Source of the DNA: Mobula hypostoma
Taxonomy: Eukaryota
Reading direction: 5' to 3'
Assembly: GCF_963921235.1 (NCBI RefSeq)
Contig: NC_086097.1
Span: 66,032,001 to 66,096,000, forward strand
DNA length: 64,000 nt
The position numbers and the translations under genes were made by a program. The notes under the pieces are model-generated. The model saw only the letters and a list, made by a program, of their open reading frames with translations. It did not search any database and was not told where the DNA came from. Positions 20,465 to 64,000 of the stretch are shown piece by piece (within the stretch, counting starts at the first letter, position 1; each line of letters begins with the position of its first letter).

Positions 20465-20624
20465 CATGGGGGCAAAGCACAATAAAGAAACATCAAGGCT
20501 TGCCCCCAAAATAAAATCCCACCGCGGATGCACACTGGCTGAAGCCGAGTGAGACCGATAGAATAGAGAATGCGGGAGTGGGAAGTGTTGGGAGGTGAAC
20601 ACTTTGAGTGGCGCTGGGGACATG

Positions 20625-36791: not shown

Positions 36792-37170
36792 TGTCATAAG
36801 GGCGGTAGCTGGGAACGGACCCAAGTGCAAGACACAGACACTGAAGTACTAGGGACAGGACTAGGATACAAGGACATGGACAGGAAAACCAGGAACATGG
36901 AACAGGACTGAACAAGAGAGCTAGGAGCCCGGGCTTGGACTCAGAGCCAGAGACTGGACAAGGACCCAGTACCCGGGTCTTCCCTCTGGCTCGGACCCCA
37001 GAACTAGGCAAGGACGAGGCTTGGCTGGCACGCAGGACGAGGCTGGAGTCTTCAGGCCAGAAGTTAGAGGCTGGAGAATTGGCTTGGCTTGGCAAGGGGC
37101 TTGAGGCTAGAGGCTTGGCTTGGCTAGAGGCTAGAGGCTGGACTCTACAGGCTCAAGGCAAGGCAAGAGG
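36792..37170 (-). mobile_element. Terminal portion of a second LTR-like element, related to 27425-28973 and inverted
   Basis: The reverse complement ends tacttcagtgtctgtgtcttgcacttgggtccgttcccagctaccgcccttatgaca, versus tacttcagtgtcagtgtcttgcatttgggtctgtttccagcaccctattgtgaca in copy 1. Both copies also share tccttgcct(a/g)gttctggggtcc(g/a)agcc...ctgggtccttgtc. Confidence 0.85.
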
Positions 37171-40100
37171 CGAGGCAGGAGACTAGAGGCGAGGCTGGAG
37201 GCAGGAGACTTGACGTGAGGCTGGAGGCTGGAGACTAGGGGCGAGGCTGGAGGCTTGAGGCTGGAGACTGGAGGGGAGACGGGAGGGGAGGCTGGAGACT
37301 AGGGGCGGGGCGAGGCTGGAGACTGGAGACTAGGGGCGAGGCTGGGGACTGGGGCGAGGCTGGAGGCTGGGGACTAGGGGCGAGGCTGGAGGCTGGGGAC
37401 TAGGGGCGGGGCAAGGCTGGGGACTAGGGGCGGGGCGAGGCTGGAGGCTGGAGACGAGGGGCGAGGCGAGGCTGGAGACGAGGGGTGAGGCGAGGCTGGA
37501 GACTAGGGGCGCGGTGAGGCTGGAGACTAGAGGCGAGGCTGCAGGCTAGGGGGCGAGGCGAGGCTGGAGGCTGGAGACTAGGGGCGAGGCTGGAGACTAG
37601 AGGCGAGGCGAGACTGGAGACTGGAGGCTGGAGACAAGGGGCTGGAGGCTGGAGACTAGGGGCGAGACTAGAGGCGAGGCTGGAGACTGGGGTGGGGCGA
37701 GGGTGGAGACTAGAGGCCAGGCTGGAGGCTGCAGATTAGAGGCAATGCGAGGCTGGAGGCTGGAGACTGGGGGCGAGGCGAGTGGAGACTGGGGGCGAGG
37801 CGAGGCTGGAGGCTGGAGATTAGAGGCGAGGCTGGAGACTGGGACAAGGTGAGGCTGGAGGCTGGAGACTAGGGGCGAGGCGAGGCTGGAGACTAGGGGC
37901 GAGGCTGGAGACTAGAGGCGAGGCTGGAGGCTGGAGACTAGGGGCGAGGCAAGGCTGGAGACTAGGGGCGAGGCTGGAGACTAGGGGTGAGGCTGGGGGC
38001 GAGGCGAGGCTGGAGGCTGGAGACTAGGGGTGAGGCTGGAGGCTGGAGGCTGGAGACTAGGGGCGAGGCGAGGCTGGAGACTAGGGCGAGGCGAGGCTGG
38101 AGACTGGAGGCTGGAGACTAGGGGCGAGGCGAGGCTGGAGACTAGGGCGAGGCGAGGCTGGAGACTAGGGGCGCGGCGAGGCTGGAGGCTGGAGACTGGG
38201 GCACGGCGAGGCTGGAGGCTGGAGACTAGGGCGAGGCGAGACTGGAGGCTGGAGACTAGGGCGAGGCGAGACTGGAGGCTGGAGACTAGGGGCGAGGCTG
38301 GAGGCTGGAGACTAGGGGCGCGGCGAGGCTGGAGGCTGGAGACTAGGGCGAGGCGAGGCTGGAGACTGGAGGCTGGAGACTAGGGCGAGGCGAGGCTGGA
38401 GACTAGGGCGAGGCGAGACTGGAGGCTGGAGACTAGGGCGAGGCGAGACTGGAGGCTGGAGACTAGGGCGAGGCGAGACTGGAGGCTGGAGACTAGGGGC
38501 GCGGCGAGGCTGGAGACTAGGGGCGCGGCGAGGCTGGAGGCTGGAGACTGGGGGCGAGGCGAGGCTGGAGACTGGGGGCGAGGCGAGGCTGGAGGCTGGA
38601 GACTCGAGGCGAGGCTGGAGACTGGGGGTGAAGCGAGGCTGGAGACTGGGGGCGAGGCTGGAGACGAGGGACGGGGCAAGGCTGGAGACGAGGGACGGGG
38701 CAAGGCTGGAGACTGGAGACTGGATACAAGGCGAGGCTGGAGACTAGGGGCGGGGCGAGGCTGGAGGCAGGAGACTGGGGGCGAGGCGAGGCTGGAGACT
38801 CGAGGCGAGGCTGGAGACTGGTGGCGAGGCGAGACTGGAGACTTGAGACTGGAAGCGAGGCTGGAGACGAGGGGCGAGGCGAGGCTGGAGACTGGGGGCG
38901 AGGCGAGGCTGGAGACTGGGGGTGAGGCGAGGCTGGAGGCTGGAGACTTGAGGCGAGGCTGGAGACTGGGGGCGAGGCGAGGCTGGAGACTGGGGGCGAG
39001 GCTGGAGACGAGGGACGGGGCGAGGCTGGAGACTATGGGCGGGGCATGGCTGGAGACTATGGGCGAGGCATGGCTGGAGACTGGGGGCGAGGTGAGGCTG
39101 GAGACTGGAGGCGAGGCTGGAGACTGGTGGTGAGGCGAGGCTGGAGGCAGGAGATGGGGCGGGGATGGCTGGAGGCTGGAGACTAGAGGCGAGGCTGGAG
39201 ACTGGGGTGGGGCGAGGCTGGAGCCTGGAGATGGGGCGGGGATGGCTGGAGGCTGGAGACTAGAGGCGAGGCTGGAGGCTGGAGACTAGAGGCGAGGCTG
39301 GAGACTGGGGTGGGGCGAGGCTGGAGACTAGAGGCGAGGCTGGAGGCTGCAGACTAGAGGCAATGCAAGACTGGGGGCAAGGCAAGGCTGGAGCCTGGGG
39401 GCAAGGCTGGAGACTGGGGGCGAGGCGAGGCTGGAGATTAGGAGCGAGGCGATGCTGCAGGCTAGGGGCGAGTCGAAGCTGGAGGCTGGAGACTAGGGGC
39501 GAGGCTGGAGACTAGGGGCGAGGCTGGAGACTGGAGACTAGGGGCGAGGCTGAAGACTGGAGACTAGGGGTGAGGCTGGAGGCTGGAGACTAGGGGCGAG
39601 GCTGAAGACTGGAGACTAGGGGCGAGGCTGGAGGCTGGAGTCTAGAGGCAAGGCTGGAGTCTAGGGTCGAGGCTGGAGACTGGAGTCTAGAGGCGAGGCT
39701 GGAGGCTGGAGACTAGGGGCAAGTCAGGGCTGGAGACTAGAGGCGAGGCTGGAGACTAGAGGCGAGGCTGGAGACTAGAGGCGAGGCTGAAGGCTGGAGA
39801 CTAGATACAAGGCGAGGCTGGAGGCTGGAGACTAGAGGCAAGGCTATAGACTAGAGGCGAGGCTGGAGGCGAGGCTGGAGGCTGGAGACGAGGGGTGAGG
39901 CGAGGCTGGAGACGCGAGGCGAGGCTGGAGACTAGGGGCAAGGCTGGAGGCTGGAGACCAGGGGCGAGGCGAGGCTGGAGACTAGGGGCAAGGCTGGAGA
40001 CTGGGGGCGAGGCTGGAGGCTGGAGACTAGGAGCGAGGCGAGGCTGGAGACTAGGGGCGAGGCGAGGCTGGAGACTCGGGGCGAGGCGAGGCTGGAGGCT

Positions 40101-43100
40101 GGAGACTCGGGGCGAGGCGAGGCTGGAGGTTGGAGATCAGGAGCGAGGCGAGGCTGCAGGCCAGGGGCGAGACGAGGGTCGAGGCTGGAGACTACGGGCG
40201 AGGCGAGGCTGGAGACAAGGGGCTGGAGGCTGGAGACTAGGGGCGAGGCTGGAGACTGGGGCGGGGCGAGGCTGGAGACTAGAGGTGAGGCTGGAGGCTG
40301 CAGACTAGAGGCAATGTGAGGCTGGAGACTGGGGGCGAGGCGAGGCTGGAGGCTGGAGACTGAGGGCGAGGCGAGGCTGGAGACTAGGGGCGAGGCGAGG
40401 CTGGAGACGCGAGGCTGGAGGCTGGAGACTAGGAGTGAGGCTGGAGACTAGGGGTGAGGCGTGACTGGAGGCTGGAGACTAGGGGCGAGGCTGGAGGCTG
40501 GAGACTAGGGGTGAGGCGAGGCTGGAGGCTGGAGACTAGGGGCACGGCGAGGCTGGAGACTGGAGGCGAGGCTGGAGGCTGGAGACTAGAGGCGAGGCTG
40601 GAGACTGGGGTGGGGCAAGGCTGGAGACTAGAGGCGAGGCTGGAGGCTGCAGACTAGAGGCAATGCGAGACTGGAGGCGAGGCTGGAGGCTGGAGATTAG
40701 GAGCGAGGTGAGGCTACAGGCTAGGGGCGAGGCGAGGCTGGAGACTAGGGGTAAGGCAACGCTGGAGACTAGGGGCGAGGCTGGAGACTAGAGGCGAGGC
40801 TGGAGACTAGGGGCGAGGCTGGAGGATGGGGTTGGAGGCTGGAGATGAGGGGCAAGGCTGGAGGCTGGAGACTAGGGTGCGAGGCGAGGCTGGAGGCTGG
40901 AGACTGAGGGCGGGGCGAGGCTGGAGACGGGGCGAGGTGAGGCTGGAGGCAGGAGACTGGGGGCGAGGCTGGAGAATGGAGACTGGGGGCGAGGCTGGAG
41001 ACTGGGGCGAGGCGAGGCTGGAGACTGGTGGCGAGGCGAGACTGGAGACTTGAGACTGGAGGCGAGGCTGGAGACTAGGGGCGGGGCGAGGCTGGAGACT
41101 TGAGACTGGAAGCGAGGCTGGAGACTAGGGGCGAGGCGAGGCTGGAGACTGGGGGCGAGGCGAGGCTGGAGACTGGGGGTGAGGCGAGGCTGGAGGCTGG
41201 AGACTTGAGGCGAGGCTGGAGACTGGGGGCGAGGCGAGGCTGGAGACTGGGGGCGAGGCTGGAGACGAGGGACGGGGCGAGGCTGGAGACTATGGGCGGG
41301 GCATGGCTGGAGACTATGGGCGAGGCATGGCTGGAGACTGGGGGCGAGGTGAGGCTGGAGACTGGAGGCGAGGCTGGAGACTGGTGGTGAGGCGAGGCTG
41401 GAGGCAGGAGATGGGGCGGGGATGGCTGGAGGCTGGAGGCTGGAGACTAGGGGCGAGGCTGGAGGCTGGAGACTAGGGGCGCGGCGAGGCTGGAGGCTGG
41501 AGACTAGGGCGAGTCGAGGCTGGAGACTGGAGGCTGGAGACTAGGGCGAGGCGAGGCTGGAGACTAGGGCGAGGCGAGACTGGAGGCTGGAGACTAGGGC
41601 GAGGCGAGACTGGAGGCTGGAGACTAGGGGCGCGGCGAGGCTGGAGACTAGGGGCGCGGCGAGGCTGGAGACTGGGGGCGAGGCGAGGCTGGAGACTGGG
41701 GGCGAGGCGAGGCTGGAGGCTGGAGACTCGAGGCGAGGCTGGAGACTGGGGGTGAGGCGAGGCTGGAGATTGGGGGCGAGGCTGGAGACGAGGGACGGGG
41801 CAAGGCTGGAGACTGGAGACTGGATACAAGGCGAGGCTGGAGACTAGGGGCGGGGCGAGGCTGGAGGCAGGAGACTGGGGGCGAGGTGAGGCTGGAGACT
41901 CGAGGCGAGGCTGGAGACTGGTGGCGAGGCGAGACTGGAGACTTGAGACTGGAAGCGAGGCTGGAGACTAGGGGCGAGGCGAGGCTGGAGACTGGGGGCG
42001 AGGCGAGGCTGGAGGCTGGAGACTTGAGGCGAGGCTGGAGGCTGGAGACTTGAGGCGAGGCTGGAGACTGGGGGCGAGGCGAGGCTGGAGACTGGGGGCG
42101 AGGCTGGAGACGAGGGACGGGGCGAGGCTGGAGACTATGGGCGGGGCATGGCTGGAGACTATGGGCGAGGCATGGCTGGAGACTGGGGGCGAGGTGAGGC
42201 TGGAGACTGGAGGCGAGGCTGGAGACTGGTGGTGAGGCGAGGCTGGAGGCAGGAGATGGGGCGGGGATGGCTGGAGGCTGGAGACTAGAGGCGAGGCTGG
42301 AGGCTGGAGACTAGAGGCGAGGCTGGAGACTGGGGTGGGGCGAGGCTGGAGACTAGAGGCGAGGCTGGAGGCTGCAGACTAGAGGCAATGCAAGACTGGG
42401 GGCAAGGCAAGGCTGGAGCCTGGGGGCAAGGCTGGAGACTGGGGGCGAGGCGAGGCTGGAGATTAGGAGCGAGGCGATGCTGCAGGCTAGGGGCGAGTTG
42501 AAGCTGGAGGCTGGAGACTAGGGGCGAGGCTGGAGACTAGGGGCGAGGCTGGAGACTGGAGACTAGGGGCGAGGCTGAAGACTGGAGACTAGGGGTGAGG
42601 CTGGAGGCTGGAGACTAGGGGCGAGGCTGAAGACTGGAGACTAGGGGCGAGGCTGGAGGCTGGAGTCTAGAGGCAAGGCTGGAGTCTAGGGTCGAGGCTG
42701 GAGACTGGAGTCTAGAGGCGAGGCTGGAGGCTGGAGACTAGGGGCAAGTCAGGGCTGGAGACTAGAGGCGAGGCTGAAGGCTGGAGACTAGATACAAGGC
42801 GAGGCTGGAGGCTGGAGACTAGAGGCAAGGCTATAGACTAGAGGCGAGGCTGGAGGCGAGGCTGGAGGCTGGAGACGAGGGGTGAGGCGAGGCTGGAGAC
42901 GCGAGGCGAGGCTGGAGACTAGGGGCAAGGCTGGAGGCTGGAGACCAGGGGCGAGGCGAGGCTGGAGACTAGGGGCAAGGCTGGAGACTGGAGGCGAGGC
43001 TGGAGGCTGGAGACTAGGAGCGAGGCGAGGCTGGAGACTAGGGGCGAGGCGAGGCTGGAGACTCGGGGCGAGGCGAGGCTGGAGGCTGGAGACTCGGGGC

Positions 43101-46100
43101 GAGGCGAGGCTGGAGGTTGGAGATCAGGAGCGAGGCGAGGCTGCAGGCCAGGGGCGAGACGAGGGTCGAGGCTGGAGACTACGGGCGAGGCGAGGCTGGA
43201 GACAAGGGGCTGGAGGCTGGAGACTAGGGGCGAGGCTGGAGACTGGGGCGGGGCGAGGCTGGAGACTAGAGGTGAGGCTGGAGGCTGCAGACTAGAGGCA
43301 ATGTGAGGCTGGAGACTGGGGGTGAGGCGAGGCTGGAGGCTGGAGACTGAGGGCGAGGCGAGGCTGGAGACTAGGGGCGAGGCGAGGCTGGAGACGCGAG
43401 GCTGGAGGCTGGAGACTAGGAGTGAGGCTGGAGACTAGGGGTGAGGCGTGACTGGAGGCTGGAGACTAGGGGCGAGGCTGGAGGCTGGAGACTAGGGGTG
43501 AGGCGAGGCTGGAGGCTGGAGACTAGGGGCACGGCGAGGCTGGAGACTGGAGGCGAGGCTGGAGGCTGGAGACTAGAGGCGAGGCTGGAGACTGGGGTGG
43601 GGCAAGGCTGGAGACTAGAGGCGAGGCTGGAGGCTGCAGACTAGAGGCAATGCGAGACTGGGGGCGAGGCGAGGCTGGAGGCTGGAGATTAGGAGCGAGG
43701 TGAGGCTACAGGCTAGGGGCGAGGCGAGGCTGGAGGCTGGAGACTAGGGGTAAGGCAACGCTGGAGACTAGGGGCGAGGCTGGAGACTAGAGGCGAGGCT
43801 GGAGACTAGGGGCGAGGCTGGAGGATGGGGTTGGAGGCTGGAGATGAGGGGCAAGGCTGGAGGCTGGAGACTAGGGTGCGAGGCGAGGCTGGAGGCTGGA
43901 GACTGAGGGCGGGGCGAGGCTGGAGACGGGGCGAGGTGAGGCTGGAGGCAGGAGACTGGGGGCGAGGCTGGAGAATGGAGACTGGGGGCGAGGCTGGAGA
44001 CTGGGGCGAGGCGAGGCTGGAGACTGGTGGCGAGGCGAGACTGGAGACTTGAGACTGGAGGCGAGGCTGGAGACTAGGGGCGGGGCGAGGCTGGAGACTT
44101 GAGACTGGAAGCGAGGCTGGAGACTAGGGGCGAGGCGAGGCTGGAGACTGGGGGTGAGGCGAGGCTGGAGGCTGGAGACTTGAGGCGAGGCTGGAGACTG
44201 GGGGCGAGGCGAGGCTGGAGACTGGGGGCGAGGCTGGAGACGAGGGACGGGGCGAGGCTGGAGACTATGGGCGGGGCATGGCTGGAGACTATGGGCGAGG
44301 CATGGCTGGAGACTGGGGGCGAGGTGAGGCTGGAGACTGGAGGCGAGGCTGGAGACTGGTGGTGAGGCGAGGCTGGAGGCAGGAGATGGGGCGGGGATGG
44401 CTGGAGGCTGGAGGCTGGAGACTAGAGGCGAGGCTGGAGACTGGTGTGGGGCGAGGCTGGAGCCTGGAGATGGGGCGGGGATGGCTGGAGGCTGGAGACT
44501 AGAGGCGAGGCTGGAGGCTGGAGACTAGAGGCGAGGCTGGAGACTGGGGTGGGGCGAGGCTGGAGACTAGAGGCAATGCAAGACTGGGGGCAAGGCAAGG
44601 CTGGAGCCTGGGGGCGAGGCTGGAGACTGGGGGCGAGGCGAGGCTGGAGATTAGGAGCGATGCGATGCTGCAGGCTAGGGGCGAGTCGAAGCTGGAGGCT
44701 GGAGACTAGGGGCGAGGCTGGAGACTAGGGGCGAGGCTGGAGGCTGGAGACTAGGGGCGAGGCTGAAGACTGGAGACTAGGGGCGAGGCTGGAGGCTGGA
44801 GACTAGGGGCGAGGCTGAAGACTGGAGACTAGGGGCGAGGCTGGAGGCTGGAGTCTAGAGGCGAGGCTGGAGTCTAGGGTCGAGGCTGGAGACTGGAGTC
44901 TAGAGGCGAGGCTGGAGGCTGGAGACTAGGGGCAAGTCAGGGCTGGAGACTAGAGGCGAGGCTGGATACTAGAGGCGAGGCTGGAGACTAGAGGCGAGGC
45001 TGGAGACTAGAGGCGAGGCTGGAGGCTGGAGACTAGATACAAGGCGAGGCTGGAGGCTGGAGACTAGAGGCAAGGCTATAGACTAGAGGCGAGGCTGGAG
45101 GCGAGGCTGGAGGCTGGAGACGAGGGGTGAGGCGAGGCTGGAGACGCGAGGCGAGGCTGGAGACTAGGGGCAAGGCTGGAGGCTGGAGACCAGGGGCGAG
45201 GCGAGGCTGGAGGCTGGAGACTAGGGGCAAGGCTGGAGACTGGGGGCGAGGCTGGAGGCTGGAGACTAGGGGCGAGGCGAGGCTGGAGACTAGGGGCGAG
45301 GCGAGGCTGGAGACTCGGGGCGAGGCGAGGCTGGAGGCTGGAGACTCGGGGCGAGGCGAGGCTGGAGGTTGGAGATCAGGAGCGAGGCGAGGCTGCAGGC
45401 CAGGGGCGAGACGAGGGTCGAGGCTGGAGACTACGGGCGAGGCGAGGCTGGAGACAAGGGGCTGGAGGCTGGAGACTAGGGGCGAGGCTGGAGACTGGGG
45501 CGGGGCGAGGCTGGAGGCTGCAGACTAGAGGCAATGTGAGGCTGGAGACTGGGGGCGAGGCGAGGCTGGAGGCTGGAGACTGAGGGCGAGGCGAGGCTGG
45601 AGACTAGGGGCGAGGCGAGGCTGGAGACGCGAGGCTGGAGGCTGGAGACTAGGAGTGAGGCTGGAGACTAGGGGTGAGGCGTGACTGGAGGCTGGAGACT
45701 AGGGGCGAGGCTGGAGGCTGGAGACTAGGGGTGAGGCGAGGCTGGAGGCTGGAGACTAGGGGCGCGGCGAGGCTGGAGACTGGAGGCGAGGCTGGAGGCT
45801 GGAGACTAGAGGCGAGGCTGGAGACTGGGGTGGGGCAAGGCTGGAGACTAGAGGCGAGGCTGGAGGCTGCAGACTAGAGGCAATGCGAGACTGGGGGCGA
45901 GGCGAGGCTGGAGGCTGGAGATTAGGAGCGAGGCGAGGCTACAGGCTAGGGGTGAGGCGAGGCTGGAGGCTGGAGACTAGGGGTAAGGCAACGCTGGAGA
46001 CTAGGGGCGAGGCTGGAGACTAGAGGCGAGGCTGGAGACTAGGGGCGAGGCTGGAGGATGGGGTTGGAGGCTGGAGATGAGGGGCAAGGCTGGAGGCTGG

Positions 46101-49100
46101 AGACTAGGGTGCGAGGCGAGGCTGGAGGCTGGAGACTGAGGGCGGGGCGAGGCTGGAGACGGGGCGAGGTGAGGCTGGAGGCAGGAGACTGGGGGCGAGG
46201 CTGGAGAATGGAGACTGGGGGCGAGGCTGGAGACTGGGGCGAGGCGAGGCTGGAGACTGGTGGCGAGGCGAGTCTGGAGACTTGAGACTGGAGGCGAGGC
46301 TGGAGACTAGGGGCGGGGCGAGGCTGGAGACTTGAGACTGGAGGCGAGGCTAGAGACTGGGGGCGAGGCTGGAGGCTGGAGACTGGGGGCGAGGCTGGAG
46401 ACTGGAGACAAGGGGCGGGGCGAGGCTGGAGACTATGGGCGGGGCGTGGCTGGAGGCTGGAGACTATGGGCGAGGCGTGGCTGGAGGTTGGAGACTAGGG
46501 GTGAGGCGAGGCTGGAGGCTGGAGACCAGGGGCGAGGCTGGAGGCTGGAGACCAGGGGCGAGGCTGGAGGCTGGAGACTGGGGGCGAGGCTGGAGACGAG
46601 GGGCTGGGCAAGGTTGGAGACGGGGCGAGGCAAGACTGGAGACTTGAGACTGGAGGCGAGGCTGGAGACTAGGGGCGGGGCGAGGCTGGAGACTTGAGAC
46701 TGGAGGCGAGGCTGGAGACTGGAGGCAAGGCGAGGCTGGAGGCCGGAGACTGGGGGCGAGGCTGGAGACTGGAGACAAGGGGCGGGGCGAGGCTGGAGGC
46801 AGGAGACTAGGGGCGAGGCTGTAGAATGAAGACTGGGGGAGAGGCTGGAGACTGGGCCGAGGCGAGGCTGGAGACTGGTGGCGAGGCGAGACTGGAGACT
46901 TGAGACTGGAGGTGAGGCTGGAGACTAGGGGCGGGGCGAGGCTGGAGACTTGAGACTGGAGGCGAGGCTGGAGACTGGAGGCAAGGCGAGGCTGGAGACT
47001 GTGGGCGAGAATGGAGATTGGAGACAAGGGGCGGGGCGAGGCTGGAGACTATGGGCGGGGCGTGGCTGGAGGCTGGAGACTAGAAGTGAGGCGAGGCTGG
47101 AGACCGGGGGCGAGACTGGAGGCTGGAGACCGGGGGCGAGGAAGGAGGCTGGAGACTAGGGGCAAGGCGAGGCTGGAGGCTGGAGATTAGGGGCGAGGCA
47201 ACGCTGGAGACTAGAGGCGAGGCTAGAGGCAGCAGACTAGAGGCAATGCGAGGCTGGAGACTGGGGGCGAAGCGAGGCTGGAGGCTGGAGACTAGGGGCG
47301 AGGCTGGAGGCTGGAGACTAGGGGCGAGGCTGGAGACTAGAGGCTGGAGGCTGGAGAATAGGGGCGAGGCTGTAGGCTGGAGACTATGGGCGAGGCGAGG
47401 CTGGAGACAAGGGGCTGGAGGCTGGAGACTAGGGGCGAGGCAACGCTGGAGACTAGGGGTGAGGCTGGAGACTAGAGACTGGAGGCTGGAGACTAGGGGC
47501 GGGGTGAGGCTGGAGACTAGAGGCGAGGCTGGAGGCTGCAGACTAGATACAAGGCGAGGCTGGAGGCTGGAGACTAGAGGCGAAGCTGGAGACTAGAGGC
47601 GAGGCTGAAGGCTGGAGACTAGATACAAGGCGAGGCTGGAGGCTGGAGACTAGAGGCGAGGCTATAGACTAGAGGCGAGGCTGGAGAATGGAGACTGGGG
47701 GCGAGGCGAGGCTGGAGACTGGGGGCGAGGCTGGAGACTGGTGGCGAGGCGAGACTGGAGACTTGAGACTGGAAGCGAGGCTGGAGACTGGGGCGCGGCG
47801 AGGCTGGAGACTAGGGGCGAGGCTGGAGGCAGGAGACCGGGGGCGAGGCTGGAGACCAGGGGCGAGGCTGGAGGCTGGGGGCGAGGCGAGGCTGGAGACT
47901 GGGGGCGAGGCTGGAGACTATGGGCGAGGCGAGGCTGGAGACTGGTGGTGAGGCGAGGCTGGAGGCAGGAGACTGCAGGCAGGGCGAGGCTGGAGATGGA
48001 GCGGGGATGGCTGGAGGCTGGAGACTAGAGGCGAGGCTGGAGACTAGAGGCGAGGCTGAAGGCTGGAGACTAGATACAAGGCGAGGCTGGAGGCTGGAGA
48101 CTAGAGGCAAGGCTATAGACTAGAGGCGAGGCTGGAGGTGAGGCTGGAGACTGGGGGCGAGGCTGGAGGCTGGAGACTGGAGGCGAGGCTGGAGACTGGG
48201 GGCAAGGCGAGGCTGGAGGCTGGAGGCTGGAGACTGGGGGCAAGGCGCTGGAGGCTGGAGACAAGGGGCGTGGCTGGAGGCTGGAGACTATGGGCGAGGC
48301 GTGGCTAGAGGCTGGAGACTAGGGGTGAGGCGAGGCTGGAGACGCGAGGCGAGGCTGGAGACGCGAGGCGAGGCTGGAGACTAGGGGCAAGGCTGGAGGC
48401 TGGAGACTGGGGGCGAGGCGAGGCTGGAGGTTGGAGATCAGGAGCGAGGCGAGGCTGCAGGCCAGGGGCGAGACTAGGGTCGAGGCTGGAGACTACGGGC
48501 GAGGCGAGGCTGGAGACAAGGGGCTGGAGGCTGGAGACTAGAGGCGAGGCTGGAGACTGGGGCGGGGCAAGGCTGGAGACTAGAGCCGAGGCTGGAGGCT
48601 GCAGACTAGAGGCAATGCGAGACTGGGGGCGAGGCGAGGCTGGAGGCTGGAGACTAGGGGCAAGGCAACGCTGGAGACTAGGGGCGAGGCTGGAGGCTGG
48701 AGACGAGGGGCAAGGCTGGAGGCTGGAGACTAGGGTGCGAGGCGAGGCTGGAGACGAGAGGCGAGGCTGGAGGCTGGAGACTAGAGGCGAGGCTATAGAC
48801 TAGAGGCGAGGCTGGAGACTGGGGGCGGGGCAAGGCTGGAGATGGGGCGTGGTGAGGCTGGAGGCAGGAGACTGGGGGCGAGGCTGGAGAATGGAGACTG
48901 GGGGCGAGGCGAGGCTGGAGACTGGAGACAAGGGGCGGGGCGAGGCTGGAGACTATGGGCGGGGCGTGGCTGGAGGCTGGAGACTATGGGCGAGGCGTGG
49001 CTGGAGGCTGGACACTAGGGGTGAGGCTGGAGAATGGAGACTGGGGGCGAGGCTGGAGACTGGGGCGAGGCGAGGCTGGAGGCTGGAGACTGGGGGCGAG

Positions 49101-52100: not shown

Positions 52101-55100
52101 GAGACCAGGGGCGAGGCGAGGCTGGAGGCTGGAGACCAGGGGCGGGGCGAGGCGAGGCTGGAGGTTGGAGACCAGGGGTGAGGCGGGGCTGGAGGTTGGA
52201 GACTAGGGGCGGGGCGAGGCTGGAGACTGGAGGCGAGGCTGGAGACTGGAGGCGAGGCTGGAGACTAGGGGCGAGGCGAGGCTGGGGGCTGGAGACCAGG
52301 GGCGAGGCGGGGCTGGAGGCTGGAGAGCAGGGGCGAGGCTGGAGGCTGCAGACTAGAGGCAACGTGAGGCTGTAGGCTGGAGACTAGGGGCAGGGCAAGG
52401 CTGGAGACTTGATGCAAGGCTGGCGGCTGGAGACTAGGGGCGGGGCGAGGCTGGAGGCTGCAGACGAGAGGCAATGTGAGGCTGGAGGCTGGAAACTAGG
52501 GGCGGGGCTCGGGGCTGGAGACTGGGGTCGAGGCGAGGCTGGAGACTGGGGGCGAGGCTGGAGACTAGGGGCGAGGCGAGGCTGGAGACTGGGGGCGAGG
52601 CTGGAGGCTAGAGACTAGGGGCGAGGTTGGAGACTAGGGGCGTGAACAGGCTGTAGGCTGGAGATAAGGGGCGAGGCGAGGCTGCAAGCTGGAGACTAGT
52701 GGCGAGGCGAGGCTGGAGACTAGATGTGAGGCTGGAGGCTGGAGTCTAGGGGCGAGGTGAGGCAGGAGACTAGGGGCGAGGCTGGAGGCTGGAGACTAGA
52801 GGCGAGGCTGGAGGCTGGAGACTAGGGGCGAGGCTGGAGGCTGGAGACTAGGGGCGAGGCTGGAGACTAGAGGCGAGGCTGGAGATGAGAGGCGAGGCGA
52901 GGCTGGAGACAAGGGGCAGGGCGAGGCTGGAGGCTGGTGACCAGGGGCGAGGCTGGAGGCTGGAGACCAGGGGCGAGGCGAGGCTGGAGGCTGGAGACCA
53001 GGGGCGGGGCGAGGCGAGGCTGGAGGTTGGAGACCAGGGGTGAGGCGGGGCTGGAGGTTGGAGACTAGGGGCGGGGCGAGGCTGGAGGCTGGAGACTGGG
53101 GGCGAGGCTGGAGACTAGGGGCGAGGCCAGGCTGGGGGCTGGAGACCAGGGGCGAGGCGGGGCTGGAGGCTGGAGAGCAGGGGCGAGGCTGGAGGATGCA
53201 GACCAGAGGCAACGTGAGGCTGTAGGGTGGAGACTAGGGGCAGGGCGAGGCTGGAGGGTGGATTCTAGGGGCAGGGCGAGGCTGGAGACTTGATGCGAGG
53301 CTGGCGGCTGGAGACTAGGGGCGGGGCTCGGGGCTGGAGACTGGGGGCGGGGCAAGGCTGGAGACTAGGGGCGAGGCGAGGCTGGAGACTGGGGGCGAGG
53401 CTGAAGACTGGGGGCGAGGCTGGAGACTAGAGGCGAGGCTGGAGACGAGGGGCGTGAACAGGCTGCAGGTTGGAGATTAGGGGCGAGGCGAGGCTGCAGG
53501 CTGGAGACTAGTGGCGAGGCGAGGCTGGAGACTAGAGGCGAGGCTGGAGGCTGGAGACCAGGGGCGAGGCTGGAGGCTGGAGACCAGGGGCGAGGCTGGA
53601 GGCTGGAGACCAGGGGCGAGGCTGGAGGCTGGAGACCAGGGGCGAGGCTGGAGGCTGGAGACAAGGGGCGGGGCGAGGCTGGAGACAAGGGGCGGGGCGA
53701 GGCTGGAGGCTGGAGACCAGGGGCGAGGCTGGAGGCTGGAGACCAGGGGCGAGGCAAGGCTGGAGACCAGGGGCGGGGCGAGGCGATGCTGGAGGTTGGA
53801 GACCAGGGGTGAGGCGGGGCTGGAGGCTGGAGAGCAGGGGCGAGGCGAGGCTGGAACTGGGGGCGAGGCTGCAGGCTGGAGACCAGGGGCGGGGCGAGGC
53901 GGGGCTGGAGGTTGGAGACTAGGGGCGGGGCGAGGCTGGAGGCTGGAGACTGGAGGCGAGGCTGGAGACTAGGGCCGAGGCGAGTCTGGGGGCTGGAGAC
54001 CAGGGGTGAGGCGGGGCTGGAGGCTGGAGACCAGGGGCGAGGCGAGGCTGGAGACTGGGGGCGAGGCTGGAGACTGGGGGCGAGGCTGGAGGCTGGAGAC
54101 TAGAGGCGAGGCTGGAGATGAGAGGCAATGTGAGATTGGAGGTTGGAGATTAGGGGCGAGGCGAGGCTGCAGGCTGGAGACTAGTGGCGAGGCGAGGCTG
54201 GAGACGAGAGGCGAGGCGAGTCTGGAGACAAGGGGCAGGGCGAGGCTGGAGGCTGGAGACCAGGGGCGAGGCTGGAGGCTGGAGACCAGGGGCGAGGCGA
54301 GGCTGGAGGCTGGAGACCAGGGGCGGGGCGAGGCGAGGCTGGAGGTTGGAGACCAGGGGTGAGGCGGGGCTGGAGGTTGGAGACTAGGGGCGGGGCGAGG
54401 CTGGAGACTGGAGGCGAGGCTGGAGGCTGGAGACTGGAGGCGAGGCTGGAGACTAGGGGCGAGGCGAGGCTGGGGGCTGGAGACCAGGGGCGAGGCGGGG
54501 CTGGAGGCTGGAGAGCAGGGGCGAGGCTGGAGGCTGCAGACTAGAGGCAACGTGAGGCTGTAGGCTGGAGACTAGGGGCAGGGCAAGGCTGGAGACTTGA
54601 TGCAAGGCTGGCGGCTGGAGACTAGGGGCGGGGCGAGGCTGGAGGCTGCAGACGAGAGGCAATGTGAGGCTGGAGGCTGGAAACTAGGGGCGGGGCTCGG
54701 GGCTGGAGACTGGGGTCGAGGCGAGGCTGGAGACTGGGGGCGAGGCTGGAGACTAGGGGCGAGGCGAGGCTGGAGACTGGGGGCGAGGCTGGAGGCTAGA
54801 GACTAGGGGCGAGGTTGGAGGTTGGAGACTAGGGGCGTGAACAGGCTGTAGGCTGGAGATAAGGGGCGAGGCGAGGCTGCAAGCTGGAGACTAGTGGCGA
54901 GGCGAGGCTGGAGACTAGATGTGAGGCTGGAGGCTGGAGTCTAGGGGCGAGGTGAGGCAGGAGACTAGGGGCGAGGCTGGAGGCTGGAGACTAGAGGCGA
55001 GGCTGGAGGCTGGAGACTAGGGGCGAGGCTGGAGACTAGAGGCGAGGCTGGAGATGAGAGGCGAGGCGAGGCTGGAGACAAGGGGCAGGGCGAGGCTGGA

Positions 55101-58100
55101 GGCTGGAGACCAGGGGCGAGGCTGGAGGCTGGAGACCAGGGGCGAGGCGAGGCTGGAGGCTGGAGACCAGGGGCGGGGCGAGGCGGGGCTGGAGGTTGGA
55201 GACTAGGGGCGGGGCGAGGCTGGAGGCTGGAGACTGGAGGCGAGGCTGGAGACTAGGGGCGAGGCGATTCTGGGGGCTGGAGACCAGGGGCGAGGCGGGG
55301 CTGGAGGCTGGAGAGCAGGGGCGAGGCTGGAGGATGCAGACCAGAGGCAACGTGAGGCTGTAGGGTGGAGACTAGGGGCAGGGCGAGGCTGGAGGGTGGA
55401 TTCTAGGGGCAGGGCGAGGCTGGAGACTTGATGCGAGGCTGGCGGCTGGAGACTAGGGGCGGGGCGAGGCTGGAGATTAGAGGCGAGGCAAGGCTGGAGA
55501 CTAGAGACGAGGCTGGAGGCTGCAGACGAGAGGCAATGTGAGGCTGGAGGCTGGAAACTAGGGGCGGGGCTCGGGGCTGGAGACTGGGGGCGGGGCAAGG
55601 CTGGAGACTAGGGGCGAAGCGAGGCTGGAGACTGGGGGCGAGGCTGGAGACTGGGGGCGAGGCTGGAGGCTAGAGACTAGGGGCGAGGTTGGAGACTAGG
55701 GGCGTGAACAGGCTGTAGGCTGGAGATTAGGGGCGAGGCGAGGCTGCAGGCTGGAGACTAGTGGCGAGGCGAGGCTGGAGACTAGATGCGAGGCTGGAGG
55801 CTGGAGACCAGGGGCGAGGCTGGAGGCTGGAGACAAGGGGCGAGGCTGGAGGCTGGAGACAAGGGGCGGGGCGAGGCTGGAGACAAGGGGCGGGGCGAGG
55901 CTGGAGGCTGGAGACCAGGGGCGAGGCTGGAGGCTGGAGACCAGGGGCGAGGCAAGGCTGGAGACCAGGGGCGGGGCGAGGCGATGCTGGAGGTTGGAGA
56001 CCAGGGGTGAGGCGGGGCTGGAGGCTGGAGAGCAGGGGCGAGGCGAGGCTGGAACTGGGGGCGAGGCTGCAGGCTGGAGACCAGGGGCGGGGCGAGGCGG
56101 GGCTGGAGGTTGGAGACTAGGGGCGGGGCGAGGCTGGAGGCTGGAGACTGGAGGCGAGGCTGGAGACTAGGGCCGAGGCGAGTCTGGGGGCTGGAGACCA
56201 GGGGTGAGGCGGGGCTGGAGGCTGGAGACCAGGGGCGAGGCGAGGCTGGAGACTGGGGGCGAGGCTGGAGGCTGGAGACTAGAGGCGAGGCTGGAGATGA
56301 GAGGCAATGTGAGATTGGAGGTTGGAGATTAGGGGCGAGGCGAGGCTGCAGGCTGGAGACTAGTGGCGAGGCGAGGCTGGAGACGAGAGGCGAGGCGAGG
56401 CTGGAGACAAGGGGCAGGGCGAGGCTGGAGGCTGGAGACTAGGGGCGAGGCTGGAGGCTGGAGACCAGGGGCGAGGCGAGGCTGGAGGCTGGAGACCAGG
56501 GGCGGGGCGAGGCGAGGCTGGAGGTTGGAGACCAGGGGTGAGGCGGGGCTGGAGGTTGGAGACTAGGGGCGGGGCGAGGCTGGAGGCTGGAGACTGGGGG
56601 CGAGGCTGGAGGCTGGAGACTGGAGGCGAGGCTGGAGACTAGGGGCGAGGCCAGGCTGGGGGCTGGAGACCAGGGGCGAGGCGGGGCTGGAGGCTGGAGA
56701 GCAGGGGCGAGGCTGGAGGATGCAGACCAGAGGCAACGTGAGGCTGTAGGGTGGAGACTAGGGACAGGGCGAGGCTGGAGGGTGGATTTCTAGGGGCAGG
56801 GCGAGGCTGGAGACTTGATGCGAGGCTGGCGGCTGGAGACTAGGGGCGGGGCGAGGCTGGAGATTAGAGGCGAGGCAAGGCTGGAGACTAGAGAAGAGGC
56901 TGGAGGCTGCAGACGAGAGGCAATGTGAGGCTGGAGGCTGGAAACTAGGGGCGGGGCTCGGGGCTGGAGACTGGGGGCGGTGCAAGGCTGGAGACTAGGG
57001 GCTAGGCGAGGCTGGAGACTGGGGGCGAGGCTGAAGACTGGGGGCGAGGCTGGAGACTAGAGGCGAGGCTGGAGACGAGGGGCGTGAACAGGCTGCAGGT
57101 TGGAGATTAGGGGCGAGGCGAGGCTGCAGGCTGGAGACTAGTGGCGAGGCGAGGCTGGAGACTAGAGGCGAGGCTGGAGGCTGGAGACCAGGGGCGAGGC
57201 TGGAGGCTGGAGACCAGGGGCGAGGCTGGAGGCTGGAGATAAGGGGCGGGGCGAGGCTGGAGACAAGGGGCGGGGCGAGGCTGGAGGCTGGAGACCAGGG
57301 GCGAGGCAAGGCTGGAGACCAGGGGCGGGGCGAGGCGATGCTGGAGGTTGGAGACCAGGGGTGAGGCGGGGCTGGAGGCTGGAGAGCAGGGGCGAGGCGA
57401 GGCTGGAACTGGGGGCGAGGCTGCAGGCTGGAGACCAGGGGCGGGGCGAGGCGGGGCTGGAGGTTGGAGACTAGGGGCGGGGCGAGGCTGGAGGCTGGAG
57501 ACTGGAGGCGAGGCTGGAGACTAGGGCCGAGGCGAGTCTGGGGGCTGGAGACCAGGGGTGAGGCGGGGCTGGAGGCTGGAGACCAGGGGCGAGGCGAGGC
57601 TGGAGACTGGGGGCGAGGCTGGAGACTGGGGGCGAGGCTGGAGGCTGGAGACTAGAGGCGAGGCTGGAGACTAGGGGTGAGTTTGGAGGCTGGAGAATAG
57701 GGGCATGAACAGGCTGCAGGTTGGAGATTAGGGGCGAGGCGAGGCTGCAGGCTGGAGACTAGTGGCGAGGCGAGGCTGGAGACTGGAGGCGAGGCTGGAG
57801 GCTGGAGACTAGGGGCGGGGCGAGGCTGGAGACAAGGGGCGGGGCGAGGCTGGAGGCTGGAGACTATGGGCGAAGCGAGGCTGGAGACTATGGGCGAGGC
57901 GAGGCTTGAGACTAGGGGCGAGGCTGGAGGCTGGAGACCAGTGGCGAGGTGAGGCTGGAGGCTGGAGACCAGGGGCGGGGCGAGGCGAGGCTGGAGGTTG
58001 GAGACCAGGGGTGAGGCGGGGCTGGAGGTTGGAGACTAGGGGCGGGGCGAGGCTGGAGGCTGGAGACTGGAGGCGAGGCTGGAGACTAGGGGCGAGGCGA

Positions 58101-61100
58101 GGCTGGGGGCTGGAGACCAGGGGCGAGGCGGGGCTGGAGGCTGGAGAGCAGGGGCGAGGCTGGAGGCTGCAGACTAGAGGCAACGTGAGGCTGTAGGCTG
58201 GAGACTAGGGGCAGGGCGAGGCTGGAGGGTGGAGTCTAGGGGCAGGGCAAGGCTGGAGACTTGATGCGAGGCTGGCGGCTGGAGACTAGGGGCGAGGCTG
58301 GAGATTAGAGGCGAGGCAAGGCTGGAGACTAGAGACGAGGCTGGAGGCTGCAGACGAGAGGCAATGTGAGGCTGGAGGCTGGAAACTAGGGGCGGGGCTC
58401 GGGGCTGGAGACTGGGGGCGAGGCAAGGCTGGAGACTGGGGTCGAGGCGAGGCTGGAGACTGGGGACGAGGCTGGAGACTAGGGGCGAGGCGAGGCTGGA
58501 GACTGGGGGCGAGGCTGGAGGCTAGAGACTAGGGGCGAGGTTGGAGGTTGGAGACCAGGGGCGTGAACAGGCTGTAGGCTGGAGATTAGGGGCGAGGCGA
58601 GGCTGCAGGCTGGAGACTAGTGGCGAGGCGAGGCTGGAGACTAGATGTGAGGCTGGAGGCTGGACTCTAGGGGCGAGGTGAGGCTGGAGACTAGGGGCGA
58701 GGCTGGAGGCTGGAGACTAGAGGCGAGGCTGGAGGCTGGAGACTAGGGGCGAGGCTGGAGACTAGAGGCGAGGCTGGAGATGAGAGACAATGCGAGATTG
58801 GAGGTTGGAGATTAGGGGCGAGGCGAGGCTGCAGGCTGGAGACTAGTGGCGAGGCAAGGCTGGAGACTAGGGGCGAGGCTGGAGGCTGGAGACTAGGGGC
58901 GAGGCTAGAGGCTGGAGACTAGGGGCGAGGCTAGAGGCTGGAGACAAGGGGCGGGGCGAGGCTGGAGACAAGGGGCTGGGCGAGGCTGGAGGCTGGAGAC
59001 CAGGGGCGAGGCGAGGCTGGAGGCTGGAGACCAGGGGCGGGGCGAGGCGAGGCTGGAGGTTGGAGACCAGGGGTGAGGCGGGGCTGGAGGTTGCAGACTA
59101 GGGGCGGGGCGAGGCTGGAGGCTGGAGGCTGGAGACTGGAGGCGAGGCTGGAGACTAGGGGCGAGGCGAGTCTGGGGGCTGGAGACCAGGGGTGAGGCGG
59201 GGCTGGAGGCTGGAGACCAGGGGCGAGGCGAGGCTGGAGACTGGAGGTGAGGCTGTAGGCTGGAGACTAGGCGCGGGGCGAGGCTGGAGACTAGGGGCGG
59301 GGCGAGGCTGGAGGCTGGAGACTAGGGGCGAGGCTAGAGGCTGGAGACTAGGGGCGAGGCTAGAGGCTGGAGACAAGGGGCGGGGCGAGGCTGGAGACAA
59401 GGGGCGGGGCGAGGCTGGAGGCTGGAGACTAGGGGCGAGGCTGGAGGCTGGAGACCAGGGGCGAGGCGAGGCTGGAGGCTGGAGACCAGGGGCGGGGCGA
59501 GGCGAGGCTGGAGGTTGGAGACCAGGGGTGAGGCGGGGCTGGAGGTTGGAGACTAGGGGCGGGGCGAGGCTGGAGGCTGGAGGCTGGAGACTGGAGGCGA
59601 GGCTGGAGACTAGGGGCGAGGCGAGTCTGGGGGCTGGAGACCAGGGGTGAGGCGGGGCTGGAGGCTGGAGACCAGGGGCGAGGCGAGGCTGGAGACAAGG
59701 GGCGGGGCGAGGCTGGAGGCTGGAGACTATGGGCGAAGCGAGGCTGGAGACTATGGGCGAGGCGAGGCTTGAGACTAGGGGCGAGGCTGGAGGCTGGAGA
59801 CTGGGGGCGAGGCTGGAGGCTGGAGACTGGAGGCGAGGCTGGAGACTAGGGGCGAGGCGAGGCTGGGGGCTGGAGACCAGGGGCGGGGCGAGGCGAGGCT
59901 GGAGGTTGGAGACTAGGGGCGAGGCTGGAGGCTGGAGACTGGGGGCGAGGCTGGAGGCTGGAGACTGGAGGCGAGGCTGGAGACTGGGGGCGAGGCTGGA
60001 GGCTAGAGACTAGGGGCGAGGTTGGAGACTAGGGGCGTGAACAGGCTGTAGGCTGGAGATTAGGGGCGAGGCGAGGCTGCAGGCTGGAGACTAGTGGCGA
60101 GGCGAGGCTGGAGACTAGATGTGAGGCTGGAGGCTGGAGACTAGGGGCGAGGTGAGGCTGGAGACTAGAGGCGAGGCTGGAGGCTGGAGACTAGGGGCGA
60201 GGCAACGCTGGAGACTAGGGGCGAGGCTGGAGACTAGAGGCGAGGCTGGAGATGAGAGGCAATGCGAGATTGGAGGTTGGAGATTAGGGGCGAGGCGAGG
60301 CTGCAGGCTGGAGACTAGTGGCGAGGCGAGGCTGGAGACTAGAGGCGAGGCTGGAGACTAGGGGCGAGGCTGGAGGCTGGAGACAAGGGGCGGGGCGAGG
60401 CTGGAGGCTGAAGACTAGGGGCGAGGCTGGAGGCTGGAGGCTGGAGACCAGGGGCGAGGCGAGGCTGGAGGCTGGAGACCAGGGGCGGGGCGAGGCGAGG
60501 CTGGAGGTTGGAGACCAGGTGTGAGACCGGGCTGGAGGTTGGAGACTAGGGGCGGGGCGAGGCTGGAGGCTGGAGACTGGGGGCGAGGCTGGAGGCTGGA
60601 GACTGGAGGCGAGGCTGGAGACTAGAGGCGAGGCTGGGGGCTGGAGACCAGGGGCGAGGCGGGGCTGGAGGCTGGAGAGCAGGGGTGAAGCTGGAGGCTG
60701 CGACTAGAGGCAACGTTAGGCTGTAGGCTGGAGACGAGGGGCAGGGCGAGGCTGGAGGGTGGATTCTAGGGGCAGGGCGAGGCTGGAGACTTGATGCGAG
60801 GCTGGCGGCTGGAGACTAGGGGCGGGGCGAGGCTGGAGATTAGAGGCGAGGCAAGGCTGGAGACTAGAGACGAGGCTGGAGGCTGCAGACGAGAGGCAAT
60901 GTGAGGCTGGAGGCTGGAAACTAGGGGCGGGGCTCGGGGCTGGAGACTGGGGGCGAGGCAAGGCTGGAGACTGGGGGCGAGGCTGGAGTCTAGGGGCGAG
61001 GCGAGGCTAGAGACTGGGGGCGAGGCTGGAGGCTAGAGACTAGGGGCGAGGTTGGAGGTTGGAGACTAGGAGCGTGAACAGGCTGTAGGCTGGAGATTAG

Positions 61101-64000
61101 GGGCGAGGCGAGGCTGCAGGCTGGAGACTAGTGGCGAGGCGAGGCTGGAGACTAGATGTGAGGCTGGAGGCTGGACTCTAGGGGCGAGGTGAGGCTGGAG
61201 ACTAGGGGCGAGGCTGGAGGCTGGAGACTAGAGGCGAGGCTGGAGGCTGGAGACTAGGGGCGAGGCTGGAGACTAGAGGCGAGGCTGGAGATGAGAGGCA
61301 ATGCGAGATTGGAGTTTGGAGATTAGGGGCGAGGCGAGGCTGCAGGCTGGAGACTAGTGGCGAGGCGAGGCTGGAGACTAGAGGCGAGGCTGGAGACTAG
61401 GGGCAAGGCTGGAGGCTGGAGACTAGGGGCGAGGCTGGAGGCTGGAGTCGAGGGGCGGGGCCAGGCTGGAGACAAGGGGCGGGGCGATGCTGGAGGCTGG
61501 AGACTAGGGGCGAGGCTGGAGGCTGGAGTCAAGGGGCGGGGCGAGGCTGGAGACAAGGGGTGGGGCGATGCTGGAGGCTGGAGACTAGGGGCGAGGCTGG
61601 AGGCTGGAGACCAGGAGCGAGGCGAGGCTGGAGGCTGGAGACTAGGGGCGAGGCGAGTCTGGGGGCTGGAGACCAGGGGTGAGGCGGGGCTGGAGGCTGG
61701 AGACCAGGGGCGAGGCGAGGCTGGAGACTGGATGCGAGGCTGGAGGCTGGAGACTAGGGGCGGGGCGAGGCTGGAGACAAGGGGTGAGGCTGGAGGCTGC
61801 AGACTATGGGCGAAGCGAGGCTGGAGACTATGGGCGAGGCGAGGCTTGAGACTAGGGGCGAGGCTGGAGGCTGGAGACCAGGGGCGAGGTGAGGCTGCAG
61901 GCTGGAGACCAGGGGCGGGGCGAGGCGAGGCTGGATGTTGGAGACCAGGGGTGAGGCGGGGCTGGAGGTTGGAGACTAGGGGCGGGGCGAGGCTGGAGGC
62001 TGGAGACTGGGGGCGAGGCTGGAGGCTGGAGACTGGAGGCGAGGCTGGAGACCAGGGGCGAGGCGAGGCTGTAGGCTGGAGACTAGGGGCAGGGCGAGGC
62101 TGGAGGGTGGAGACTGGAGGCGAGGCTGGAGACTAGGGGCGAGGCGAGTCTGGGGGCTGGAGACCAGGGGCGAGGCGGGGCTGGAGGCTGGAGAGCAGGG
62201 GCGAGGCTGGAGGATGCAGACCAGAGGCAACGTGAGGCTGTAGGGTGGAGACTAGGGGCGAGGCTAGAGGCTGGAGACAAGGGGCGGGGCGAGGCTGGAG
62301 ACAAGGGGCTGGGCGAGGCTGGAGGCTGGAGACCAGGGGCGAGGCGAGGCTGGAGGCTGGAGACCAGGGGCGGGGCGAGGCGAGGCTGGAGGTTGGAGAC
62401 CAGGGGTGAGGCGGGGCTGGAGGTTGCAGACTAGGGGCGGGGCGAGGCTGGAGGCTGGAGGCTGGAGACTGGAGGCGAGGCTGGAGACTAGGGGCGAGGC
62501 GAGTCTGGGGGCTGGAGACCAGGGGTGAGGCGGGGCTGGAGGCTGGAGACCAGGGGCGAGGCGAGGCTGGAGACTGGAGGTGAGGCTGTAGGCTGGAGAC
62601 TAGGGGCGGGGCGAGGCTGGAGACTAGGGGCGGGGCGAGGCTGGAGGCTGGAGACTAGGGGCGAGGCTAGAGGCTGGAGACTAGGGGCGAGGCTAGAGGC
62701 TGGAGACAAGGGGCGGGGCGAGGCTGGAGACAAGGGGCGGGGCGAGGCTGGAGGCTGGAGACTAGGGGCGAGGCTGGAGGCTGGAGACCAGGGGCGAGGC
62801 GAGGCTGGAGGCTGGAGACCAGGGGCGGGGCGAGGCGAGGCTGGAGGTTGGAGACCAGGGGTGAGGCGGGGCTGGAGGTTGGAGACTAGGGGCGGGGCGA
62901 GGCTGGAGGCTGGAGGCTGGAGACTGGAGGCGAGGCTGGAGACTAGGGGCGAGGCGAGTCTGGGGGCTGGAGACCAGGGGTGAGGCGGGGCTGGAGGCTG
63001 GAGACCAGGGGCGAGGCGAGGCTGGAGACAAGGGGCGGGGCGAGGCTGGAGGCTGGAGACTATGGGCGAAGCGAGGCTGGAGACTATGGGCGAGGCGAGG
63101 CTTGAGACTAGGGGCGAGGCTGGAGGCTGGAGACTGGGGGCGAGGCTGGAGGCTGGAGACTGGAGGCGAGGCTGGAGACTAGGGGCGAGGCGAGGCTGGG
63201 GGCTGGAGACCAGGGGCGGGGCGAGGCGAGGCTGGAGGTTGGAGACTAGGGGCGAGGCTGGAGGCTGGAGACTGGGGGCGAGGCTGGAGGCTGGAGACTG
63301 GAGGCGAGGCTGGAGACTGGGGGCGAGGCTGGAGGCTAGAGACTAGGGGCGAGGTTGGAGACTAGGGGCGTGAACAGGCTGTAGGCTGGAGATTAGGGGC
63401 GAGGCGAGGCTGCAGGCTGGAGACTAGTGGCGAGGCGAGGCTGGAGACTAGATGTGAGGCTGGAGGCTGGAGACTAGGGGCGAGGTGAGGCTGGAGACTA
63501 GAGGCGAGGCTGGAGGCTGGAGACTAGGGGCGAGGCAACGCTGGAGACTAGGGGCGAGGCTGGAGACTAGAGGCGAGGCTGGAGATGAGAGGCAATGCGA
63601 GATTGGAGGTTGGAGATTAGGGGCGAGGCGAGGTTGCAGGCTGGAGACTAGTGGCGAGGCGAGGCTGGAGACTAGAGGCGAGGCTGGAGACTAGGGGCGA
63701 GGCTGGAGGCTGGAGACAAGGGGCGGGGCGAGGCTGGAGGCTGAAGACTAGGGGCGAGGCTGGAGGCTGGAGGCTGGAGACCAGGGGCGAGGCGAGGCTG
63801 GAGGCTGGAGACCAGGGGCGGGGCGAGGCGAGGCTGGAGGTTGGAGACCAGGTGTGAGACCGGGCTGGAGGTTGGAGACTAGGGGCGGGGCGAGGCTGGA
63901 GGCTGGAGACTGGGGGCGAGGCTGGAGGCTGGAGACTGGAGGCGAGGCTGGAGACTAGAGGCGAGGCTGGGGGCTGGAGACCAGGGGCGAGGCGGGGCTG
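37170..64000. repeat. G-rich satellite array (at least 26.8 kb), core GGGGCGAGGCTGGAGACTA, with higher-order repeats
   Basis: Continuous tandem variants of a 19-bp core with optional GCGAG (+5) and GCTGGAG (+7) inserts. Identical ORF-track translations recur at 2.2, 3.0 and 3.33 kb spacing. The array runs off the window end. Confidence 0.97.

Follow-up and report, generated by a model that had tools for sequence, protein, structure and literature searches.

A satellite of 168 kb in the Mobula hypostoma genome sits between the two halves of one solo LTR whose TSD is intact, and it very probably grew there after the insertion from the short repeat slot resident in that LTR. The window, the 64,000-nucleotide stretch of DNA analysed here, is G000:C1:66,032,001-66,096,000 in an assembly of 3.48 Gb and 200 contigs, and extended coordinates carry its numbering on into the adjoining downstream stretches (Table 1). 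The first-pass annotation had described an inverted LTR-like element, copy 2, with its end at 36792 and a terminal block grading into satellite; we see the same arrangement, and TRF tracks the satellite to 64000. Beyond the window it continues to extended ~204,990 (G000:C1:66,236,990), in one polarity throughout and with one 200-N gap (extended 150,077-150,276), which makes the satellite past 36792 larger than the more than 26 kb first noted. Copy 2 as a whole spans 168,743 bp in the assembly, the LTR itself being about 1 kb without the array. Both an LTR end on the far side and a TSD of CATGC beyond it had been predicted, and both are there: the far half ends in GGACTAGGACA at extended 205,534 and CATGC follows directly. 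That half is 87-92% identical to half of another family copy, although its expected likeness to the 5′ part of copy 1 (27425-28130) proved patchy, with 39 bp at 82% and 107 bp at 75%. Copy 2 has TGTCA at one end and GGACA (+) at the other, one substitution from TGACA with the terminal dinucleotide kept. It thereby shows the TG...CA termini and the 4-6-bp TSD on both sides (CATGC/CATGC) of a solo LTR, and 14 two-LTR copies carry its sequence as a pair of direct repeats enclosing PBS and PPT. The 40 best family copies, the window's own among them, are 89-100% alike to the block at 36792-37075.

Table 1. Features in and beyond the window, and long LTRs closed at both ends (extended coordinates are marked as such)
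Feature	Position	Strand	Details
FoxA-type forkhead gene	18547-20467	-	Forkhead E=1e-38, Forkhead_N E=1e-11; exon limits by eye; context only
Copy 1, solo LTR, sister subfamily	27425-28973	+	TGTCA...TGACA, 5-bp TSD AACAT
42-bp VNTR in copy 1 slot	28139-28553	+	9.9 copies, 96% matches, 420 bp inside TGACA end
Host non-LTR retrotransposon	33460-36791	-	RVT_1 E=1e-16; zf-RVT E=1e-5, below cut-off
TSD CATGC, left copy	36787-36791	.	right copy at extended 205,535-205,539 (beyond window)
Copy 2 LTR, 3′ part	36792-37075	-	in sense ends ...CCCTTATGACA; PBS next in two-LTR copies
Satellite in copy 2 slot, window part	37076-64000	-	TRF array up to 64000
Copy 2 LTR, 5′ part	extended 204,991-205,534 = G000:C1:66,236,991-66,237,534	-	carries TATA-like box and PBS-complementary site
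Closed long LTRs, C1 census	C1		168.7, 24.9, 18.7, 11.6, 7.4 kb
Closed long LTR	C12		119.4 kb, gap-free; TSD CAATG
Closed long LTR	C18		81.9 kb, one gap; ATTAT/ATTAA
Closed long LTR	C5		28.5 kb, middle read in part; TSD AAGAG
Closed long LTR	C76		15.0 kb; TSD GATTT
Closed long LTR	C1:61.9 Mb		7.5 kb; GACCA/GACTA

The window part of the satellite is 68% GC, with G making up 52% of the + strand, and is built of short words such as GAGGC, TGGAGAC and TAGGGGC (+). Over its 168 kb the array holds 131 AGCT, 2 three-tier G4 motifs and 5,098 two-tier motifs, which leaves a reading as an Ig-switch-like or three-tier G-quadruplex sequence weak. No LTR ends were found within the array, ruling out tandem multiplication of whole elements as its source. 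The developmental transcription factor gene that had been placed about 16 kb from the array is of FoxA type, carries Forkhead and Forkhead_N domains and has its first ATG 16.3 kb from 36792, with the array upstream of it.

Copy 2 lies in a non-LTR retrotransposon, the last ~100 bp of which lie past the far end of the array (extended 205,535-205,641). We examined nine uninterrupted copies of this host element out of 40 listed; in eight the left and far right flanks adjoin with a 5-bp overlap, CATGC is single in 8/9, and the ninth has only 14 bp in common past the insertion site. Because the flanks adjoin in these eight copies, they were once a single site, and all that lies between them therefore came with one LTR or grew inside it. 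Next to the host element, tail to tail with it, is a decayed LINE with RT-like frames (window ~30950-33460, +).

Copy 1 has the coordinates given for it, and its 42-bp VNTR lies as described about 420 bp inside the TGACA end. The proposed relation between the two copies also holds, their terminal blocks being 69% identical over 303 bp and 86% over 84 bp. The satellite-like words reported around the VNTR are present at 28075-28138, where common satellite 7-mers reach 15.5% vs 1-2% in the first 650 bp of copy 1, but the 42-bp unit itself shows no enrichment for the words of the giant array (569 of 2000 shuffles were as high). Of 93 loci examined in copy 2's subfamily, seven share a 16-19-mer with the VNTR, and a broader 12-mer count finds 11 of the 93, with at least one of 60 shuffles higher. 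Among the relatives of copy 1, 16 of 19 examined contain tandem units, with periods mostly of 36-43 bp or multiples. Copy 1 belongs to a sister subfamily with 36-43-bp units of its own and does not represent the unexpanded state of copy 2's subfamily, which is found elsewhere in the genome with slots of 0.1-0.9 kb; the idea that both slot states are visible within 10 kb is thus not borne out. The two subfamilies hold a variable slot at the same LTR position, filled by different units. Copy 1 itself splits a 33-bp minisatellite of 40 copies near its end (window 26101-27424 and 28974-29037).

The LTR family has roughly 3,000 members. A 35-mer of one end has 975 exact matches and a 23-mer near the other end 1,392, and the overlap of these markers on C1 (30/100) gives a rough figure of ~3,250 LTRs. 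The slot normally holds a short stretch, 0.1-1 kb, of satellite words. In 14 two-LTR copies the LTRs measure 0.8-2.8 kb and the whole elements 1.8-4.2 kb; a non-coding inner part of 145-177 bp with PBS and PPT is present in all of them, and an exact TSD in 12. Their LTR pairs diverge by 4.5-10.3% in the unique ends, so that none of these copies is very young. The LTR end occurs at high depth in organism B and is also present in organism C, which makes it likely that the family is older than the split of these two from Mobula hypostoma. A TATA-like box stands at sense position 137-139 in 14/14 two-LTR copies, and a complement of the PBS (11-mer, at most one mismatch) at 170-172, ~30 nt past the box, in 11. 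In the predicted MFE fold of one short copy the LTR 5′ end pairs with the PBS and the slot falls in a loop; the stability of the whole fold of that copy is no greater than that of shuffles (z 0.23). The family likely self-primes from the PBS-complementary site near the predicted transcript 5′ end, a layout known from Tf1/sushi elements (PMC6317226).

We regard the family as non-coding and TRIM-like, probably of Gypsy type, and Tf1/sushi-like in part. Like TRIM and Cassandra elements (PMC12486564), it has direct terminal repeats, a short non-coding inner part with PBS and PPT and 5-bp TSDs, and it likewise occurs as solo LTRs and as three-LTR tandem forms. TRIMs measure ~0.5-1 kb, whereas LTRs here are mostly 0.8-1.4 kb and elements ~2-4 kb, so that the family is too large for a TRIM and is filed as TRIM-like only; moreover, the repeating unit of TRIM arrays is an LTR together with its inner part (PMC12486564), whereas the growth seen here is that of a slot within one LTR. 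The likeness to the Tf1/sushi group lies in the start TGTCATA, which fits TGTYANR (PMC6317226, PMC3601003), and in the PBS complementary to a site ~30 nt past the TATA-like box (PMC6317226), a predicted transcript 5′ end in 11/14 copies. An AATAAA close to the LTR 3′ end is a feature of that group (PMC3601003), whereas neither AATAAA nor ATTAAA occurs in the sense strand of 36792-37075; unlike Tf1/sushi elements, the family has no gag-pol, and its 3′ end fits CNTNACA at 6/7 positions (PMC6317226, PMC3601003). All 15 PBS-junction matches have a second LTR end ~145-180 bp off and none a long inner part, and neither these matches nor 30 DUF4939 loci (of at least 150 listed) yielded an autonomous coding partner. 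The layout of LTR end, PBS and ATGGAC resembles that of 2 of the 30 DUF4939 gag loci examined in the same genome. Two of the 30 lie near a copy-1-type LTR end but lack a PBS, which we attribute to chance insertion and do not take as evidence of a partner.

The giant array is one of many. In a census of 58 left-end matches on C1, a length was obtained for 49 LTRs (median 1.1 kb), the other nine being truncated or unpaired; five LTRs of at least 7 kb hold 231 of the 283 kb, and without the window's own copy 4 of 48 are this long. Together with those from elsewhere (Table 1), ten LTRs of at least 7 kb are closed at both ends, with eight exact TSDs and two with one mismatch, and range from 7.4 to 168.7 kb; given short slots as the norm, they support the proposal of a family with a variable slot that seeds satellites. 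Further arrays with an open end, their middles read in part, exceed 95, 89, 67, 50, 47, 42, 36, 19, 18 and 16 kb. At least nine arrays are longer than 40 kb, and the satellite seen totals ~1 Mb, the open arrays being partly read. Individual chromosomes carry several long arrays separated by tens of Mb, and one array is a neighbour of FoxA, a spread that may speak against confinement to centromeric constrictions; on C1 the seven arrays of at least 4 kb are spread over 61.9-117.7 Mb. All seven census LTRs of at least 2 kb fall at 66-132 Mb, in mid-C1, which may be chance since 41 of the 58 matches also lie at 52-142 Mb.

We also approached the arrays from the satellite side. A common satellite 25-mer has 6,445 matches genome-wide, 556 of them in the window array, and the 100 listed form two clusters; one new array found this way has LTR halves at both ends. 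A rarer 30-mer, picked from LTR-bounded arrays, has 81 matches in 19 clusters, 13 of them new. The 26 ends of these 13 comprise 12 LTR halves, two ends that are not, one gap and 11 not reached, while two arrays are without any resolved end. An LTR half thus stands at 12 of the 14 resolved ends, contrary to the outcome named beforehand as damaging, that the satellite would occur mostly without LTR flanks across the genome. A C50 array of 23.6 kb has the right LTR half only, the left being absent. At C81:21.87-21.88 Mb, a 6.3-kb array of the same words stops abruptly at both ends, neither of which has an LTR half.

The LTRs of one element are at birth copies of a single template. Their slots nevertheless differ within one element, 462 vs 2165 bp and 346 vs 1401 bp in two cases, and at C36:99.2 Mb 0.3 kb vs over 50 kb. 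Across 12 arrays compared, the fraction of 50-mers repeated within an array is 0.51-0.91 in 11 and 0.14 in the shortest, and the fraction common to another array is at most 0.14. Such private 50-mers, taken with the unequal slots of sister LTRs, indicate that growth came after insertion. In the window array, tiles find their best match at most 15 kb off in 36 of 41 cases (median 5.5 kb, identity 82-100%), stretches of 2-11 kb are locally duplicated, with periods of 2.2, 3.3, 10.2 and 11.1 kb, and at 57-99 kb there are blocks with 1-kb tiles 99.9-100% identical to copies 3-11 kb away. The window array appears to have been built up by local duplication over many rounds, of which some are old and others either recent or errors of assembly.

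Three other explanations for the giant array have to be weighed against growth in place. The least probable of them by some way, and largely refuted, is that an LTR landed beside or in an older satellite, so that the satellite would be a free family captured by LTRs. The C81 array speaks for it, as the one cluster without an LTR among 11 satellite-first clusters with a resolved end; LTR halves end the other ten, family members normally carry these words in short slots, and the array is enclosed both by a TSD and by a host element that is also known in its empty form. An assembly artefact, by which unrelated arrays were joined across the 200-N gap or haplotype copies stacked, would have the gap at 150,077 and the near-identical 10-11-kb duplications in its favour, and these do leave the exact length of the array uncertain. 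The TSD and the host element nevertheless agree across the gap, the same private word occurs on both sides, and 18% of far-side 50-mers are also found on the near side, mostly next to the gap, vs 0-5% in other arrays; the gap-free 119-kb copy on C12 has the same anatomy. The length may be off, an error in the bracket is unlikely, and as an account of the whole structure an artefact is very improbable. Paralogues dominate among public contigs matched to both junctions, and no listed piece spans either one.

Only slightly less improbable than an artefact is import, in which the bulk of the array would have come from another satellite locus, whether through circular DNA that reinserted, through ectopic break-induced replication or through gene conversion. 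The fraction of 12-mers common across the 12 arrays is 0.11-0.96, which is sufficient homology for copying between loci; the C81 array stands without LTR flanks, and the comparison covered 12 of what are probably hundreds of arrays. Against this, none of the 11 others contains more than 1% of the 50-mers of the window array, whose leading word GAGACTAGGGGC occurs 7.4 times per kb here and 0.0 times per kb there, a 60-mer taken from the window array has a single occurrence in the genome, and the best matches of the array's tiles are local. We accordingly retain growth in place as the preferred reading.

Such growth might have proceeded as follows. The family would be copied by borrowed Gypsy enzymes. 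Its slot, positioned after the TATA box and the self-primer site and before the LTR 3′ end, would form the loop of the predicted priming fold, so that little would constrain its length, and the ~3,000 LTRs would each land with 0.1-1 kb of G-rich words. Landed slots then change independently, as the pattern of the arrays shows, and take up new sequence from a distance of a few kb, in a single polarity. Slippage at the scale of words could give way to kb-scale unequal sister exchange or break-induced replication, longer arrays may grow faster, and about one LTR in 12 would attain at least 7 kb. On a genome-wide scale we lean towards regarding the family as a vertebrate satellite seeder, in which ~3,000 slot-bearing LTRs have given rise to ~200-300 arrays of 7-170 kb, each independently grown and with a private dialect, on chromosome arms and near developmental genes.

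The passage from short repeat to long satellite is usually inferred from its end states, the birthplace being erased. Here arrays of 0.1-169 kb still have around them, many times over, the birthplace, the scar of insertion and, often, a sister LTR that did not expand. Since TSDs, sister LTRs and paralogous sites in the empty state record how each array began, they provide, if our reading is true, a replicated time series of satellite birth. With these starting states preserved, one can measure directly whether arrays grow in place or spread from a library, how growth rate relates to age, and what chromosome position contributes. Were the seeder reading true, such arrays would be a real share of this lineage's tandem-repeat load. 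The locus also shows that a 1-kb insertion can displace the upstream DNA of a developmental gene by 168 kb without further transposition.

The birth of satellites from retrotransposon-internal repeats is already known; what is unusual here is its preservation and its replication. The mouse minisatellite loci Ms6-hm and Hm-2 are reportedly of kb size. Both lie in MaLR LTRs (Kelly 1994, as tabulated in PMC9659126), a human 8.7-kb array of a 33-bp minisatellite lies between MLT1D pieces (PMC4411736), and mouse TR-MTA arrays consist of repeated element fragments (PMC3218096). The MaLR and MLT1D cases resemble ours as vertebrate tandem repeats expanded in or between LTR pieces but are single loci, whereas the slot here is a standing part of a family and has reached 40-169 kb in at least nine places (PMC9659126, PMC4411736). 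Expansion of retrotransposon-internal repeats to satellites is reviewed in PMC12628747 and PMC9659126. In the Ogre elements (Ty3/gypsy Tat) of Lathyrus sativus, short arrays in dispersed LTR retrotransposons occasionally become long satellites (Vondrak et al., PMC7004042), and both sides of that pattern are found here: dispersed elements carry a short array at a constant position, and a fraction of these arrays have grown long (nine over 40 kb). The skewed distribution of array lengths and the non-autonomous carriers are further likenesses (PMC7004042). The Ogre slot, however, lies in the inner region after gag-pol, whereas ours lies inside the LTR and persists in solo LTRs; long Ogre arrays are reported mainly or solely from primary constrictions, whereas ours occur at several places per chromosome, most of them, unlike Ogre arrays, still bracketed by LTR halves and a TSD and one of them 16 kb from FoxA (PMC7004042). 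In a search of mainly open-access papers we found no dispersed vertebrate family with an LTR slot and many TSD-bracketed giant arrays, and the text consulted of two ray-genome preprints does not mention the LTR family.

We made several further observations on the structure of family members. At four loci (L122, L161, L211, L274) three LTRs stand in tandem, separated by inner parts. A tandem array at C1:78.77-78.80 Mb has at least six units of ~3.4-4.2 kb, each composed of an LTR half, an inner part, the next LTR start and ~2 kb of extra sequence, and beside it lies a separate two-LTR copy with TSD ATTAC. At L091:6664-9293, 3.4 kb away from a solo LTR of 3.2 kb, there is a second, diverged element that has two LTRs, a variant PBS and the TSD GTCTG. 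Of the two LTRs of an element, the one at the sense 5′ end is often longer: this holds by length for 9 of the 14 two-LTR copies and also for the case with over 50 kb, in a small sample partly picked for long slots. Finally, at C12:12.397 Mb a divergent reading frame, the start of which we take, from a motif, to be Hsp70-like, has a two-LTR copy ~0.9 kb upstream of it.
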